In this document: positions 1-47,798 of the stretch, piece by piece | How positions within the stretch are numbered: the first letter of the stretch is position 1 | Layout of the letters: every line of letters begins with the position of its first letter | Virus record (IMG/VR): IMGVR_UViG_3300025140_000080 | Coordinates: 7,378 to 71,377 of that record | DNA length: 64,000 nt | Direction: 5' to 3' (one strand) | Source of the DNA: a virus | The notes under the pieces: model-generated | The model's input: the letters and a program-made list of their open reading frames with translations, nothing else | Databases searched by the model: none | Told to the model about the DNA's origin: nothing | Translations under genes and position numbers: made by a program

Positions 1-3000
1 TGGTAAATATGGACAAGTAAACCTTGTGGGCAAATCATTTGGAGTTCTGAAATTCAAACCAACTGGTAGTACAGAGGATATTGATGTTGCTATACCACGA
101 ACCGACACAGCAACAGGTGCTGGTGGTCATAAGGGCATTGAGACAAAATCAGATCATGCATTACCAATTGAGGATGATTTACGTAGACGTGACCTAACAA
201 TCAATGCGATAGCTAACGATATTGAGGGTAATGTTATTGACCCTTTTGGCGGTGTTGATGATATTCGTAATAAAATTATTCGAATGGTCGATCCTTCGGC
301 TTTTACCGAAGACCCTTTGCGTATGCTTCGTGCTGTTCAGATGGCTTCAAGATTTGGTTTTACAATCGAACCTGAAACCATGAAAGCTATTCAGGGTAGC
401 GTTTCGAAGATAAGAGAAATACCATCAGAGAGAATATTAACTGAATTCGATAAAATAGTCCAAAAGGGCGATCATTTAATCGGTGCAAATCTTTTGGTTG
501 AGACAGGTATATACAAACAATTATTCGGAGTTAACCCAATGGTTGATTTCAATTCTAAGGCTGAGTTATTTAGGAATGCTAAAACAATGGGCGAATTTAT
601 TTACCTGTTAATTGGCGACACTATAGATGCTCCCGATGAATTCTATAAAACTAAATTGCGTGGTGAGATAAACACCTATAAGGAAATAAAAGCATTGAAG
701 TTTGCATTCGATTCAGAGGGCAATACTGTAAACATATATAAAGCCAGATCAATTGCTTATAATATGTACGCAACATATCCAGAGTCTTTAAAGTCAAACA
801 TAATACCTAAGTCTATAAAAATGGCTTGCGACGAATTATTGTCAGGTAAGTATCCAAAGTCAAATGCAGATTTACCTGTAAACGGTAATGATCTTATGAA
901 TCTTGGTTTTAGGGGTGAACAAATAAAGAATAAATTTAAGGAAATTTTATTGAAGATATACACTGATAAGCTGAAAAATAATCGTGAGGATATTTTAAAA
1001 TACATTAGTTCTGATAATAAACCCACACCAGATGGTACTGATGAACCTTTAAATGAAACTATAAAAGGTGGCGAATATGTTATGTATCATGGTAGTAAGC
1101 ATAAATTTGATAAGTTTACTGATGAATTTGTCGGTAAGGAAAATGCAACCGATCAAGAAGGCCCTGGAATTTACTTCACCGAATCCGAAGAAGAGGCTCA
1201 TATGTATGGTGAATATATTTATTCTGTTGTATTAAGACCTCGTAAGATGACGAACGCAGCAAATAAGAAGGTTGTATCGGTCTCTATGATGTCATCTTTA
1301 ATTAAAATGTCTCCTCAATGGAAGGAAGATGCTCAGAATTATGATATAAACCCAAACAGAGGACTTGCTAAAGCGATTTCAATGATGTCAGAGTACGCTG
1401 ATAACGAGAAGGATTTATACCAACAAATATGGGTTGATTTTTTTAGACATCAGCCCAGATTATTTATTCAAGGCATGTCAAAGCTGGGTTTTGATGGACA
1501 ACTAATTAATAAGGAATATGGTGGCGTTAGACATATTATAGCGTATAATCCAGCTATAATTACTATTACAAATATGGTTAGTAAAGTTCCTGACGCTACA
1601 AGCGAAAACTTTAACTTACAGGAATCTCTTGAACAAGAGGGCGTCGGAGATAAATACGCTGAAAAGAAATTTGGTATCCCAGACCCTGATGACGAGTTTG
1701 AAAAGGATTATAAGCTTCATAACCTACTAATGTCTGAAAAACCTGTAGCATATGTTAAAAATTATGATAATGTAAATAATATACGTGAAAATGTGGGGAT
1801 ATATAAAAATCCGCAATCTTTAAGTAATTTTGATCAATCTACACGTGCCATTGCTGATGTTTATGGTAATATTTATGTTGCTCAGAAGAATGGTAATTTC
1901 ATTCATGGCGAAATGGCGGTAGCTTTAAAATTTGCTGTTACCGATGATAGTTTTTATGATAATCTTGATCGATTTTTACTTCTTAATCGTGTTGGTAATA
2001 CTAATACATTCGGACTTAGCGATACAACCAGTAGTTATGTAAATGCTGACGAAAGTGATCGTAGAATAGTTATGTTGAAGATATTTAAAAAACTGATTCA
2101 AAAAAACTCACAGTTTAGGTATTATGATAGATATTTTTTAGATATTAAGAGCGATAATAAACCAATTAACGATACCAAGATTACCCAAGAAGGCGTTGGC
2201 GATAAATATGCTGCAAATAAATTCGGAATTCCTGATCAGGATGATGAATTTGAAAAAGAGTATAAAACACATTTGCAGACACAGGAAGAAAAGCCTATGG
2301 CATATGTTTTAGACACTAAAAGTGATCGTATTGCGATATATAAGAATCCACGATCATTGGCTAATTTTGATGCTGACGTTCGAGCAATTGGTGACCCAAG
2401 CGGTAACATTTACGTTGCTCTACAGGATAAATATTTTACGCATTCAAGAATGGCTGAGAATATTGGATTGTTTACAAGCGGTAACGAGATTTACTCAACA
2501 GAGAACTTAAAAAAATACACGTTGATGCATAGGATCGGTCTAACCAATGGATTTGGCTTAGGTGATGCTCAATATGAGATAATGAATGATGAGTATGAGA
2601 ATGATGGCTCGTTAATAGCTAATTTAAGAAATTTTAAAAAAAGAAATCCTCAATATAATTATTATCCAGATTTTTATAAATTTGTAAAACCCAACGATAA
2701 ATTTGTTGAGGAGTCTGTTAATGAACTAAGTTCCGTAAACCCAATGAGTAAGAAAAAGCTTGTAAAATATTCAGCCGTTGTTCTTGATGATAAATCAATC
2801 AATAAATTACGCAACGCTTTCGCTGATTTGATTCCAGATGATTATAATCAATATAGAACAAATGCCTCTGGTGGCACTGAACTTATATGTGATCATATGA
2901 CAATTAATTTCGGAGAGATTGACAGTTTTTATGAGAAATATTTAGGATATACACTTAGATTAAAGGTCGAGAGTTATGCCATTGATGAAAATGTTATGGC

Positions 3001-3166
3001 TGTTGGCGTCTCTGGATTCGGGTCTATTAATGATAATAGACATATAACTCTTGCTGTAAACGATAATAATGGGGCAACTGCGAAAATGTCAAATGATCTG
3101 AAAAAATGGATACCTTATCGTAAACCTCTATTTCTAATAGGACGTGTTACGGAAGTACCAGTTTAA
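1..3166 (+). CDS. cca: 5'-truncated polyprotein: class II CCA-adding/poly(A)-polymerase-family nucleotidyltransferase + ADP-ribosyltransferase-like domain + two ~184-aa repeats + C-terminal 2H phosphoesterase
   Basis: Frame open to left edge (position 2). DIDVA, DDLRRRDLTINAIA, EDPLRMLRA, ERILTEF, LPVNGNDL (CCA family); YHGS..GPGIYFT..A..Y..GFDG (ART-like); HMT and HIT motifs (2H). Confidence 0.85.
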   Translation, partial: GKYGQVNLVGKSFGVLKFKPTGSTEDIDVAIPRTDTATGAGGHKGIETKSDHALPIEDDLRRRDLTINAIANDIEGNVIDPFGGVDDIRNKIIRMVDPSAFTEDPLRMLRAVQMASRFGFTIEPETMKAIQGSVSKIREIPSERILTEFDKIVQKGDHLIGANLLVETGIYKQLFGVNPMVDFNSKAELFRNAKTMGEFIYLLIGDTIDAPDEFYKTKLRGEINTYKEIKALKFAFDSEGNTVNIYKARSIAYNMYATYPESLKSNIIPKSIKMACDELLSGKYPKSNADLPVNGNDLMNLGFRGEQIKNKFKEILLKIYTDKLKNNREDILKYISSDNKPTPDGTDEPLNETIKGGEYVMYHGSKHKFDKFTDEFVGKENATDQEGPGIYFTESEEEAHMYGEYIYSVVLRPRKMTNAANKKVVSVSMMSSLIKMSPQWKEDAQNYDINPNRGLAKAISMMSEYADNEKDLYQQIWVDFFRHQPRLFIQGMSKLGFDGQLINKEYGGVRHIIAYNPAIITITNMVSKVPDATSENFNLQESLEQEGVGDKYAEKKFGIPDPDDEFEKDYKLHNLLMSEKPVAYVKNYDNVNNIRENVGIYKNPQSLSNFDQSTRAIADVYGNIYVAQKNGNFIHGEMAVALKFAVTDDSFYDNLDRFLLLNRVGNTNTFGLSDTTSSYVNADESDRRIVMLKIFKKLIQKNSQFRYYDRYFLDIKSDNKPINDTKITQEGVGDKYAANKFGIPDQDDEFEKEYKTHLQTQEEKPMAYVLDTKSDRIAIYKNPRSLANFDADVRAIGDPSGNIYVALQDKYFTHSRMAENIGLFTSGNEIYSTENLKKYTLMHRIGLTNGFGLGDAQYEIMNDEYENDGSLIANLRNFKKRNPQYNYYPDFYKFVKPNDKFVEESVNELSSVNPMSKKKLVKYSAVVLDDKSINKLRNAFADLIPDDYNQYRTNASGGTELICDHMTINFGEIDSFYEKYLGYTLRLKVESYAIDENVMAVGVSGFGSINDNRHITLAVNDNNGATAKMSNDLKKWIPYRKPLFLIGRVTEVPV

Positions 3167-3191: not shown

Positions 3192-3986
3192 ATGAGTACA
3201 ATAGACATGCAACATAGACCATCGTATTTACCTCAAGTAAATGCTCCATTTGATATCGTTATCGATAAACTTGGTGCTGAAGGGGTGAACGGTAGAATTA
3301 TTGACATCAATCCTTCAATATTAAAAGCTTTACAGGGTATTACTTTTTCACATGAGGTTGATGATGCAAATATCGATGACGATGAAAATCCTATTTGGAT
3401 TAATAATGAATTATTCGTTCTCGATGGTCATCATAGACTTGTTAAGTCGCTATATGCTGGTAAGAAAACTATTAAAGCCGTACTTGTAGACCTTGATCAT
3501 AAAAATGCTTGTAGACTTTTAAATAAAATACAGGATATATATGATTACGATCAACAAAAGGAAGCTGAGAATAGCAATGTTCCGAATAGTTTTTTAGATT
3601 CTATTGAGGGTACTATTGAGGAGGCTGATATTGACGGCGATTCGATGAACGTTGTTAAACTTATAGGTTATCGTAAAGATAATTTTAAGGATAATTCAAC
3701 TAACGGCAATTTTTTCACATTATCACCTAAAGAGGGTATGAAAAAATATGAAATTGAGTTCGACAATATTTTAGATACTGATAAATTGGGTGTCTCTTAT
3801 AAAAGCAGTCAGAATCCTGTGGATGTATTAGCGAGGATATGGTTTCCTCATGTAAACTTTAATGCTATTTCACAAGAGAATAATATTAGTGAGTTTAATT
3901 TGAAATGTAAAGCAATCGCTGAAAAGGCTAAAAAATATGGATTTGATGGAATCAAATACGGTGAAATATTAATACAAGGATTTTAA
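3192..3986 (+). CDS. ParB/Srx-like N-terminal domain fused to degenerate ART-like domain
   Basis: VLDGHHR motif; C-terminal GYR..GNFFT..GFDGIKY resembles the ART-like domain of the upstream gene. Confidence 0.55.
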   Translation: MSTIDMQHRPSYLPQVNAPFDIVIDKLGAEGVNGRIIDINPSILKALQGITFSHEVDDANIDDDENPIWINNELFVLDGHHRLVKSLYAGKKTIKAVLVDLDHKNACRLLNKIQDIYDYDQQKEAENSNVPNSFLDSIEGTIEEADIDGDSMNVVKLIGYRKDNFKDNSTNGNFFTLSPKEGMKKYEIEFDNILDTDKLGVSYKSSQNPVDVLARIWFPHVNFNAISQENNISEFNLKCKAIAEKAKKYGFDGIKYGEILIQGF

Positions 3987-29100: not shown

Positions 29101-29512
29101 TATACCTAAAATTAACAACACACTTGCAAGTATTTTATCTGTGTCGGCGTTCAAAGTATGGCTGGACTTAGATGATCTTAGACCTAAATTGGCTTATAAT
29201 AGCCGTCCGTTAGCTGTGATTGACTGCATTAGCGCATCAGGTAAGGAACGTACATTTTCTGCTATTGTTTTAAAATTCGCTTTAAATCAAATTAATGCTA
29301 AGGTAAAGCCAACTATATTCATGCTTGATGAGGTTATGGGTAAACTGAGTGCCGATAGTATCGAGGAATTTAACGAAATCCTTCAATTAATTAAGGATAA
29401 CATGCAAAAAGTATTGGTTATTGAGCATAATCACGAGATTAACCCTGATTATGTAATCAATGTTCAATTAGATGAGAATGAAATATCAACATTAACAATA
29501 AACACATTATAA
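26162..29512 (+). CDS. sbcCD: fused SbcD(Mre11/gp47)-SbcC(Rad50/gp46) nuclease-ATPase
   Basis: DIH, NGD, GNHD, GDIH; Walker A GKNTAGKT; hook CPTC; signature SASGKE; Walker B MLDE; H-loop IEH. Confidence 0.9.
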   Translation: MGQIITVAQIADIHLRNIPTRNVEYASVFANLYKSLRKDKPSRIMINGDLVHDYLHLEGEQLILASDLLDQLALIAPVRIVRGNHDFKRINPQRVDSVKAIVDTLHNKNIIYYDTTGFIDDENITWCVWHHGSSSNSPWTTKTGIELVANKDPNRVYIDLFHDPINGCQTVTGFEMTKKTLRNLGDFNGDLLFLGDIHKKQYFYKNNALFGSYPSSLIAQDFGEGDDNFHGYLLWNVEKSTVIEKPIANDYSFKNIIISSYVDFDDIDIEIDEPTTFMKVRFIWKTLPYVRTSINENKLVAYIKGKYPNITSVSNKSDFIIDNKIVVSEDVTLVSINETTVQQAIFTEHLDAMGIEAATIKDVIDLDDIISGEIDHTDDVGGNFNIIKFGGRNFASYETIDIDWRELNGLFQIVGKNTAGKTTLIKLISYILYNKSLETEGRVKFGDSRYVNNRNGATFCDAYMVFDYNSEYYGIKKRTTITRSKDGAINGAPTTLNYYLMASPDDEMNDQNSLDNMSGDQRIKTQKIIESLIGSYDNFMRIVVTTADTLNKILSNDMSTFIDSLLFDSGLDIFDKKLDACKKNQKRLAEKGRINCNVENSDNEILRLKNSISELELQLTELESVTVVEIENSMSNGRKYVDTLHKDMHKIDDEIYNMDIEQANRSAEKYKITISDYYKRIEIIEKSMSELKNTYDEARYNELVAQKDTHRNSEYALKLKIKDFESTISRKDHEIEIINGKIVNLKRDGLKIKNELIGFKQGTTEHTCPTCHQSVAQDNEHIKQKISDLKTEMFSIADTIKNYESVDIIALKDSIVGLNAEINIVKEQIEVISLTMVGVLAEIGVLNNDKNDYMLRLKLADELERIPLYIRTNELELDIIGQKIIRYGENIIQIDENKKLSERIKQADAKIQKYADDLKVVQSNIYNKRLAINDSNSKIVQTESLVKLFKAQEHVDNVYALYIKCVHRDGIPRQMLVNYIIPKINNTLASILSVSAFKVWLDLDDLRPKLAYNSRPLAVIDCISASGKERTFSAIVLKFALNQINAKVKPTIFMLDEVMGKLSADSIEEFNEILQLIKDNMQKVLVIEHNHEINPDYVINVQLDENEISTLTINTL

Positions 29513-47110: not shown

Positions 47111-47140
47111 TTATACGTAACTCGATAAAAAAGGTTACAA
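47111..47140 (-). promoter_or_regulatory. early-type motif
   Basis: Exact match. Confidence 0.75.
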
Positions 47141-47175
47141 AAAAGGTCAACATATTTTGAGTATGTTGACCTTTT
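47139..47175 (-). terminator. terminator closing the RNA array
   Basis: AAAAGGTCAACATA/TATGTTGACCTTTT with U tract on - strand. Confidence 0.85.
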
Positions 47176-47184
47176 ATATTCAAA

Positions 47185-47268
47185 AAAAACAAAGAACAGT
47201 TAAGACAGAGTTTTTTGTATAAAAATTTCGATTTTTTTGATGAAACTGTCTCGAACACTATTGTTTTT
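47185..47268 (-). ncRNA. Y-RNA-like hairpin unit 5
   Basis: Outer stem AAAAACAA/UUGUUUUU, bulged U, AG/CU pairs, UGUUC loop, inner stem AGACAG/CUGUCU. Confidence 0.65.
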
Positions 47269-47270
47269 CG

Positions 47271-47394
47271 TAGGGCATGATGGACTCGAACCACCGACCT
47301 CGTCATTAAGAATGAAGTAACTTTTACGAACGCCACAATAAAGGGAAAAGGTGTAAAAGAGAATTTCGCGCTCTACCAACTGAGCTAACGCCCT
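47271..47394 (-). tRNA. tRNA-Lys(CUU) interrupted by a 51-nt Y-like insertion at position 28/29 (insert 47316-47366); no encoded CCA
   Basis: Acceptor AGGGCGU/AUGCCCU; D arm GCUC-AGUUGGUA-GAGC; T arm GGUGG-UUCGAGU-CCAUC; deleting the insert gives CGUCA-UUCUUAA-UGACG and a 73-nt cloverleaf. Confidence 0.85.
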
Positions 47395-47401
47395 ATAATA
47401 T

Positions 47402-47517
47402 AGATGAATAAGGAAAATGAGAGACAGAGTTTTGTATTTACTTAATTATTGAGATTGAGTTGATCTTAATTATTGAGATTGAGTTGATGAAACTGTTTCT
47501 AACGCCATTATTCATTT
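47402..47517 (-). ncRNA. Y-RNA-like hairpin unit 4 (loop expanded by 24-nt duplication)
   Basis: Outer AUGAAUAA/UUAUUCAU, bulged U, GG/CC, inner AGAAACAG/CUGUCUCU. Confidence 0.6.
47441..47488. repeat. perfect 24-nt tandem duplication CTTAATTATTGAGATTGAGTTGAT x2
   Basis: Direct inspection. Confidence 0.95.
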
Positions 47518-47518
47518 G

Positions 47519-47584
47519 TCGGTGTGCGAGGGGACGATCCTCATATAATACCGTATACTGCATTACAAGCCAAGACACACTCCG
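47519..47584 (-). ncRNA. degenerate D-arm-less tRNA-like element
   Basis: Acceptor CGGAGUG/CACACCG (6/7), T-like arm UGAGG-AUCGUCC-CCUCG, central hairpin UAAUGC/GUAUUA. Confidence 0.4.
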
Positions 47585-47591
47585 ATATAAA

Positions 47592-47661
47592 TAGATAAGG
47601 AAAAAGATAATACGGTGAATATTTCGTAAAAGGAAGTAACCGTATCGAACGCCATTATCTA
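47592..47661 (-). ncRNA. Y-RNA-like hairpin unit 2
   Basis: Outer UAGAUAA/UUAUCUA, bulged U, GG/CC, CGUUC loop, inner AUACGGU/ACCGUAU, UACUUC...GAAAU. Confidence 0.7.
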
Positions 47662-47670
47662 AATTTTTGT

Positions 47671-47740
47671 AAGCAAAGAACTGATGGTAGGGTGTGATTT
47701 CATTTATGGAGGAAGTAACCCTTACCGAACGCTATTACTT
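47671..47740 (-). ncRNA. Y-RNA-like hairpin unit 1
   Basis: Outer AAGUAA/UUGCUU, bulged U, AG/CU, CGUUC loop, inner GGUA(A)GGGU/ACCCUACC, UACUUC...GAAAU. Confidence 0.7.
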
Positions 47741-47750
47741 AATATTTTTA

Positions 47751-47798
47751 CAAAGGTACTATTTAATATTTAATTTGCAAGTATAAATAGTACCTTTG
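47751..47798 (-). promoter_or_regulatory. Bacteroidota-type promoter for the RNA array inside a perfect 15-bp inverted repeat
   Basis: - strand TTG(47780-78)-N19-TACCTTTG(47758-51); IR CAAAGGTACTATTTA-N18-TAAATAGTACCTTTG. Confidence 0.7.

Follow-up and report, generated by a model that had tools for sequence, protein, structure and literature searches.

A giant multi-enzyme protein of an uncultured T4-like jumbo phage carries candidate prohead-protease sites at its module edges

The polyvalent proteins described in 2017 by Iyer, Burroughs, Anand, de Souza and Aravind include proteins with ADP-ribosyltransferase (ART) and 2H phosphoesterase domains that are predicted to be delivered with the virion; ART-PolyVal is their commonest catalytic domain, and 2H also occurs (PMC5512222). 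In phage T4, Alt and the internal proteins are packaged into the head via capsid-targeting sequences, and these proteins, together with gp23 and gp24, are trimmed N-terminally by gp21, whose family of S77 proteases cuts after Glu (PMC5694885, PMC9026906). Here we describe a giant gene at the start of a 64,000-nucleotide stretch of viral DNA (hereafter the window; positions 7378-71377 of the 95.8-kb IMG/VR record IMGVR_UViG_3300025140_000080, CheckV completeness 29%). Its product, P0002, comes from an uncultured T4-like jumbo phage with a genome of ~328 kb; it is a multi-effector protein of the polyvalent type and joins a CCA-adding-type nucleotidyltransferase (NTase), an ART module, two copies of an unnamed domain and a 2H phosphoesterase. 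The best single reading of the comparative and genomic evidence, to which we would give a probability of roughly 45%, is that P0002 is a capsid-delivered cargo polyprotein from which a prohead protease releases the individual enzymes.

Like the polyvalent proteins, P0002 belongs to a tailed phage, gathers several unrelated effector domains including ART-PolyVal and 2H, and varies among its relatives in domain order and copy number. Unlike them, it lacks a zincin-like metallopeptidase and any MuF, portal, ParB or helicase module; it possesses a full CCA-adding-type enzyme and an unnamed 180-residue domain; and its module edges carry a T4-type prohead-protease motif with no built-in peptidase. 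The sequence-only reading knew of no description of this exact architecture; the general kind has been known since 2017 (PMC5512222), but in that paper 'CCA' appears 0 times, prohead-protease sites go unmentioned, and the Pol-beta NTases are of minimal, RelA/SpoT or GGDEF types. New in P0002 are its CCA module, a domain family without a name and a prohead-protease motif used as a joint between modules. With T4 Alt and the internal proteins IPI-III, P0002 shares a T4-like phage, a gp21-family protease, the h-x-E motif (h, hydrophobic) and an ADP-ribosyltransferase among the predicted cargo; its gene adjoins baseplate genes, as do those of Alt homologues (PMC5512222), and its single-domain relatives bear short leaders that end in Glu. 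T4 cargo, however, is encoded by separate genes with one N-terminal cut each, whereas P0002 would take up to six cuts, and the ART domain of Alt belongs to the R-S-E clade whereas that of P0002 is in the H-Y clade. A class II head (GGxVRD, DxD, RRD, EDxxR) chained to an RNA-end phosphoesterase is likewise found in the E. coli-type CCA repair protein, but its partner is HD, whereas P0002 has 2H and four further modules, is viral and is possibly virion-borne. Finally, the best structural match to the ART module lies in a large ejection protein resolved inside the capsid of cyanophage A4 (PMC12002296), a podovirus with a different head system.

The giant gene is an open frame on the + strand at window positions 2-3166, with its 5' part cut off by the window start. 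In the full record the open reading frame (ORF) spans G000:C1 6320-10543 and encodes 1407 residues (159 kDa), starting 1059 nt upstream of the window, so that a P0002 residue number equals the window-frame residue plus 353 (Table 1). This one ORF holds the CCA NTase, ART-PolyVal and 2H domains and further unassigned modules, the composition expected of a polyvalent protein. All four domain types lie in the order and at the coordinates given by the sequence-only reading, and the four linkers that it quoted are all present; 353 further residues, including an N-terminal element and another module, are encoded upstream of the window, out of sight of that reading. Searches of residues 1-300 against Pfam, PHROGs and the Atlas returned no usable match. 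The N-terminal element, named CNQGD after its invariant motif, occurs exactly once in each giant protein of the family and has invariant V14, K17, C20, L22, C32-N-Q-G-D36, N39, L40 and E48. The identical giant protein, called from a later Met, is found on at least 7 metagenomic contigs, the longest of 328,453 bp.

The proposal of protease-like sites at every domain boundary was originally drawn from four linkers of P0002, and on those linkers alone it does not rise beyond chance; what sustains it is that the edges are conserved across homologues, in a phage that encodes an S77 protease and a motif-rich scaffold. The edges were assessed by anchoring each module on its first conserved core residues and inspecting the sequence just upstream, in ~190 relatives overall, with composition-preserving shuffles of the same windows as controls; the sequences are related, so the counts measure conservation and are not independent trials. 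Before the ART module, (L/I)-(N/D/T/S)-E↓T/V-I/V-K-G-G (↓, putative cut) is present in 11/11 homologues (5.1 in shuffles) and in 13 of 14 unique contexts of the larger set. The CCA module is preceded, five residues before its first conserved block, by (M/I/L/V)-N-E in 14/14 (shuffles 7.3), with Glu at P1 in 27/34 of the larger set. At the edge of the repeated domain the motif is found in 20 of 33 (shuffles 10.4). Of 173 unique contexts, 166 have Glu at P1 ahead of G-V-G-D-K-Y; I/L/F/V occupies P3 in roughly half and P4 in many others. The 2H edge is looser, (I/L/V)-x-E lying 8-20 residues before the first core strand in 11/13 (shuffles 7.5). Window shuffles thus give about half of the observed counts, and random windows far fewer. 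A conserved h-x-E edge precedes three unrelated folds (CCA, ART and the repeat) and, more loosely, the 2H fold. To judge from the repeat and ART models, the position of these sites ahead of the first strand or helix would leave them exposed.

A protease of the matching family is encoded by the same phage. Peptidase_S77, the family of T4 gp21, occurs in 5 of 10 related repeat-carrying jumbo-phage records, among them the two with a completeness of 90% or more. The S77 sequence of the closest relative led to an 89% identical protein, P0023 (226 aa, PF03420), and an exact-sequence look-up placed P0023 on ENA ERZ27245488 contig k141_1156773 (328,453 bp), which also encodes the identical giant protein. 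The head module on this contig (162064-182744; locus L052) comprises Terminase_6N, Portal_T4, Peptidase_S77, scaffold and Gp23. Together with gp25 and the baseplate wedge genes, this T4-type head module makes a crAss-like label for the genome look wrong, a point that touches window positions 47139-47798. The scaffold is an acidic protein of 442 residues with 23 h-x-E motifs against 14.2 in shuffled sequences (15 of 2000 shuffles reach 23), and these include K-L-N-E↓T and several h-I-N-E. In the first 70 residues of the Gp23-family capsid protein there are 5 h-x-E motifs (2.1 when shuffled), of which V-K-E44 lies about as far from the conserved core as the T4 cut does; the T4 control sites, read from the genome, are F-L-T-E65↓A in gp23 and L-L-R-E10↓S in gp24.

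Two further observations concern the same genes. In two related jumbo phages (G001:C1 214260-215930 and G002:C1 295747-297414; loci L046-L049) S77 is found as N and C halves ~400 residues apart within one frame of 651-653 aa, which suggests an intein or large insertion. On the long contig, a 1705-residue ORF without a family match (L052 4797-9914, minus strand) separates the portal gene from that of the prohead protease, and could encode another head or cargo protein.

Relatives of P0002 are built from the same parts. A word-indexed search with residues 690-1407 retrieved ~20 of them, 877-2403 residues in length, and home-made hidden Markov models (HMMs) recognise in these the same cassettes in differing order and number: one CCA module in most, 0-5 repeat units (42 units in 17 proteins), a varying complement of ART, 2H and N-terminal modules, and NUDIX and GNAT in some. 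In the closest phages the giant gene always keeps one place, behind DnaB, the SNF2 helicase, PolB and a few small genes and ahead of a glycosyltransferase, gp25 and baseplate wedge genes. Near-identical DNA was not found in cultured phages, and tblastn against them recovered the CCA module only. The repeated domain also exists by itself, and 35 of 52 short representatives of its family begin the E-G-V-G-D-K-Y motif after a leader of 5-28 residues. Two kinds of leader recur, 'M-x-I-x-x-I-I-x-E-E-I...h-x-E' and 'M-K-x-I-K-x-F..F-x-E'; the first kind also starts a stand-alone ART-PolyVal protein and two ORFs of another phage, and recurs between modules in some giant relatives. By analogy, though not by homology, one Glu-ending leader on unrelated mature domains resembles the pattern of the T4 capsid-targeting sequence; P0002 itself has the CNQGD element in place of such a leader. 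At one locus (L059 5771-6870) the stand-alone repeat and ART-PolyVal genes are convergent neighbours with the same N-terminal leader, which suggests that the two domains work together. Domains also seem to be exchanged between the polyprotein and the genes beside it: in this phage a gene of its own encodes the NUDIX hydrolase upstream (G000:C1 3810-4511), and in the giant relative P0008 (L005 10001-15304) the hydrolase is fused in, with no separate upstream gene with a NUDIX match listed at that locus.

Under the proposed mechanism, the giant protein would be built into the prohead, where the prohead protease would cut after Glu48, Glu296, Glu705, Glu899, Glu1083 and Glu1261 to yield enzymes of ~16-46 kDa, and these would enter the host along with the DNA, in the manner of Alt and the internal proteins of T4. 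There, 2',3'-cyclic phosphate ends produced by defence RNases would be opened by the 2H enzyme, the CCA enzyme would rebuild tRNA 3' ends, and the ART and the domains of unassigned function would act on other host targets. We favour this reading because relatives share the modules and the gene order, the edges are conserved, the genome holds both S77 and a motif-rich scaffold, leaders end in Glu, the best ART match lies inside a capsid, and polyvalent proteins offer a precedent.

Several points weigh against it. Taken singly, P0002 contains 28 [LIVMF]-x-E motifs where shuffles give 26, and hydrophobic residues two positions ahead of Glu are no more frequent than expected from composition. Glu1 of the repeat could be a residue of the fold, within the conserved EGVGDKY motif, and mark no cut site; P3 is aliphatic in only about half of the contexts. 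The giant gene lies outside the head module, and the neighbours of stand-alone relatives are arrays of small ORFs instead of head genes. Neither a capsid-targeting sequence like that of T4 nor a fusion to MuF or portal was seen in P0002, a search that included no dedicated comparison with the T4 peptide. The CNQGD element, considered as a general capsid tag, was rejected as such, being present in one copy per genome and always within the giant protein. Some packaged giants, such as the virion RNA polymerase (vRNAP) of phage N4, stay uncleaved (PMC5512222). Finally, the promoter-like motif GTATTTATW (GTATTTATA upstream of the giant-gene operon), with 16 copies against 5.9 expected and a position 15-30 nt upstream of many + strand genes, precedes the portal, scaffold and gp25 genes but also the SNF2-PolB operon; because of this last occurrence it does not date the giant gene.

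The serious rival is an uncleaved cytoplasmic multi-enzyme made during infection, a tethered machine for RNA-end repair and host modification in which the conserved edges are inherited acidic linker or helix-capping residues. The CCA-adding enzymes of jumbo phages are usually free cytoplasmic repair enzymes (PMC7824862), and the giant gene lies in one tight operon after DNA polymerase and NUDIX. The chance-level density of h-x-E in the whole protein and the place of the repeat Glu1 within a conserved motif count in the same direction. Such an enzyme would nevertheless leave three unrelated folds with the same motif at the same distance from the first structural element, unrelated stand-alone domains with a common Glu-ending leader, and a matching protease and motif-rich scaffold in the same genome, and we consider it a tentative alternative to the protease-released polyprotein.

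What the released enzymes would do is a separate matter. The CCA-type module, a CCA/poly(A) polymerase head with an RNA-binding body, scores above cut-off with PF01743 and PF12627, matches phrog_2244 at E 1e-48 and ends near nt 1012; its class II head motifs are complete, with GGAVRD (residues 322-327) and DLD (336-338) upstream of the window and RRD (415-417, nt 185-193) and EDPLR (456-460, nt 308-322) within it. Pfam, PHROGs and motifs thus agree on the CCA NTase to ~1010 recognised from sequence. The 2H domain proposed at ~2760-3166 is supported by its motifs, HMT (residues 1318-1320, nt 2894-2902) and HIT (1367-1369, nt 3041-3049), both H-x-T motifs being invariant in 13 homologues (the second as H(I/V)T). 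As a family profile, PF08302 (tRNA_lig_CPD) is borderline for P0002 alone (19-23 bits against a cut-off of 23) and matches 13/13 of the 2H homologues, with a best E of 3e-7. By Pfam, then, the nearest family is the cyclic phosphodiesterase of fungal tRNA ligase; a profile search of PDB sequences with the 2H module found no relative.

The ART module was predicted at ~1060-1570, and both profile and fold searches support it: PF18760 (ART-PolyVal) matches at E 3e-9 (38 bits, cut-off 31), and the AlphaFold2 (AF2) model (pLDDT 85) has an ART fold. Among solved structures it is closest to a part of the cyanophage A4 pre-ejectosome (PDB 9k3a chain B, residues ~1420-1609), with Z 10.4 over 151 residues, a Foldseek E of 2e-5 and 13-16% identity; by residue numbering this chain is probably gp27. 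The A4 pre-ejectosome protein accordingly holds an ART-like domain, and the paper on that structure describes none (PMC12002296). Further matches are AcrIF11 (Foldseek E 5e-5), diphtheria toxin (Z 9.7), tankyrase (8.7), PARPs (~8) and MbcT, whereas Tpt1-type entries reach only Z 4.9-6.0 and no KptA/Tpt1 Pfam match was obtained. Among the homologues His716, Tyr744 and His864 are invariant and Asp851 is nearly so. His864 starts the penultimate strand, matching the E-Y-I-V-Y pattern of PARPs, and Asp851 begins the strand before it; the third catalytic position is either Asp851 or His864, the latter plausibly standing where the catalytic Glu usually does, as the sequence-only reading proposed.

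These same modules admit roles other than tRNA repair, which we regard as rather unlikely: 2H, with NUDIX in relatives, would degrade cyclic or 2'-5' immune signals, the ART would modify host proteins or consume NAD, and phage tRNA maturation or the tailing of other RNAs would fall to the CCA-type enzyme. Iyer et al. argued that polyvalent 2H domains stand apart from RNA ligases and may break down signalling nucleotides (PMC5512222), and the structural neighbours of the ART model are protein-modifying or NAD-consuming enzymes (AcrIF11, diphtheria toxin, PARPs and MbcT), far from Tpt1. Against this stand the sole Pfam relative of the 2H module, a tRNA-ligase cyclic phosphodiesterase recognised in every member, and the joining of 2H with a complete CCA-type enzyme in one polypeptide in most relatives; moreover, the 95.8-kb record holds no tRNA genes to mature, the other ~230 kb of the genome not having been searched.

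Less probable still is that the protein is packaged but cut only near its N-terminus or not at all, in the style of T4 Alt or the N4 virion RNA polymerase, with the internal sites buried or unused. Both precedents are documented (PMC5512222, PMC5694885), and in P0002 the N-terminal CNQGD element ends in the invariant h-x-E48; in relatives, however, the element is internal, and the conservation of the internal edges would be left without explanation. As for the ART module acting after 2H as a Tpt1/KptA-like 2'-phosphotransferase, 2H followed by KptA being established as a repair pathway of jumbo phages (PMC9503650, PMC7824862), this is disfavoured by a model far closer to diphtheria toxin, PARPs, AcrIF11 and A4, and we retain it as a minor possibility.

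The domain between ART and 2H belongs to a family of its own. Two ~184-residue repeats had been noted in the sequence, and they do start exactly at nt 1637 and 2189, are 184 aa long and share 40% identity. An alignment of 35 units (A1) shows D5, N58, P59, G77 and H90 to be invariant and E1, G2, K6, Y7, E9, L62, R70, R118 and P158 nearly so, and AF2 gives a confident alpha/beta model for copy 1 (pLDDT 91). Sequence searches placed it in no described family: Pfam returned no match for any of the 35 units, PHROGs a single weak one (E 0.017) and a profile search of the PDB none. Searches with the model gave a best Foldseek E of 0.5 against the PDB; a best VIA-align Z of 3.7 over 48,161 chains, to ADF/cofilin, with weak NFACT-R matches at Z 2.4-2.9; only uncharacterised proteins and weak 'toxin 43' rows among AlphaFold database (AFDB) clusters; and, in the Atlas, TM 0.35 by shape and less than 0.9 by features. 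HMMER over 1.84 billion representatives, in turn, found 841 clusters with the domain at E <= 0.001, of which 571 reach <= 1e-10; single-domain proteins of 170-210 residues are frequent among them. The conserved polar residues would suit a pocket better than a spacer. The result is a newly defined, unnamed domain family of hundreds of clusters with conserved Asp, Asn, Arg and His.

Elsewhere in the window, a different motif, TTGTAAC-N14-TACGTATA, marks twelve units at 41577-63729, all on the minus strand; with one mismatch allowed, the search gives 13 matches against 2.3 expected, the thirteenth, at 29101, being without the TTGTAAC box. None lies within the 12 kb around the giant gene, which therefore belongs to a different regulatory class from those twelve units. 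The T4 late promoter TATAAATA gave no informative pattern. Directly 3' of the giant gene (window 3192-3986, + strand) is a gene with a weak ParB-like PHROG match (E 7e-4) and no Pfam match. ParB-type domains are frequent in polyvalent proteins.

Table 1. Modules and candidate cut sites of the giant gene, with copies of GTATTTATW; an arrow marks a putative cut.
Feature	Position	Strand	Basis or remark
CNQGD element	G000:C1 6320-6463, P0002 residues 1-48	+	48 residues, two Cys
Module without known family	P0002 residues ~49-165 (~120 residues)	+	recurs in 11 relatives
Stretch unique to P0002	residues 166-296 (~130 residues)	+	
Class II CCA-adding-type NTase	residues 301-690; window 2-1012 is the C-terminal two thirds	+	PF01743, PF12627, phrog_2244
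Candidate prohead-protease site P-L-N-E705↓T706	window 1046-1057	+	directly before first ART strand
ART-PolyVal ADP-ribosyltransferase module	window ~1058-1594, residues 706-884	+	PF18760, AF2 model
Linker N-L-Q-E894↓S-L-E-Q-E899↓G	window 1613-1639	+	two candidate cut sites before repeat 1
EGVGDKYA domain, copy 1	window 1637-2188, residues 899-1082	+	alignment A1, AF2 model
EGVGDKYA domain, copy 2	window 2189-2728, residues 1083-1262	+	preceded by K-I-T-Q-E1083↓G
Candidate cut sites F-V-E-E1257↓S-V-N-E1261↓L	window 2705-2725	+	before 2H module
Compact 2H phosphoesterase module, 133 residues	window 2765-3163, residues 1275-1407	+	HMT, HIT, PF08302
Stop codon of giant gene	window 3164-3166	+	
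GTATTTATW copies	window 8123, 11067, 12024, 17252, 21031, 23870, 30378, 31720, 34851	+	
GTATTTATW copies	L052 1957, 3977, 10726, 16145		

A wider proposal, possible but doubtful at present, would treat the h-x-E code in this clade of T4-like jumbo phages as a universal joint by which effector cassettes are added, duplicated or removed in a capsid-loaded polyprotein. Its cargo would include a kit for tRNA 3'-end repair (2H plus CCA enzyme) acting before phage expression, and the widespread, enzyme-like EGVGDKYA domain would represent a novel type of anti-defence effector delivered by injection. Should the cuts prove real, tailed phages would be able to deliver a set of enzymes as one gene product and leave their release to the capsid protease, much as RNA viruses do with their polyproteins, and the free swapping of effector cassettes between phages would find an explanation. 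A virion-borne CCA enzyme and cyclic phosphodiesterase would pre-empt those bacterial defences that cut tRNA, before phage transcription has begun.

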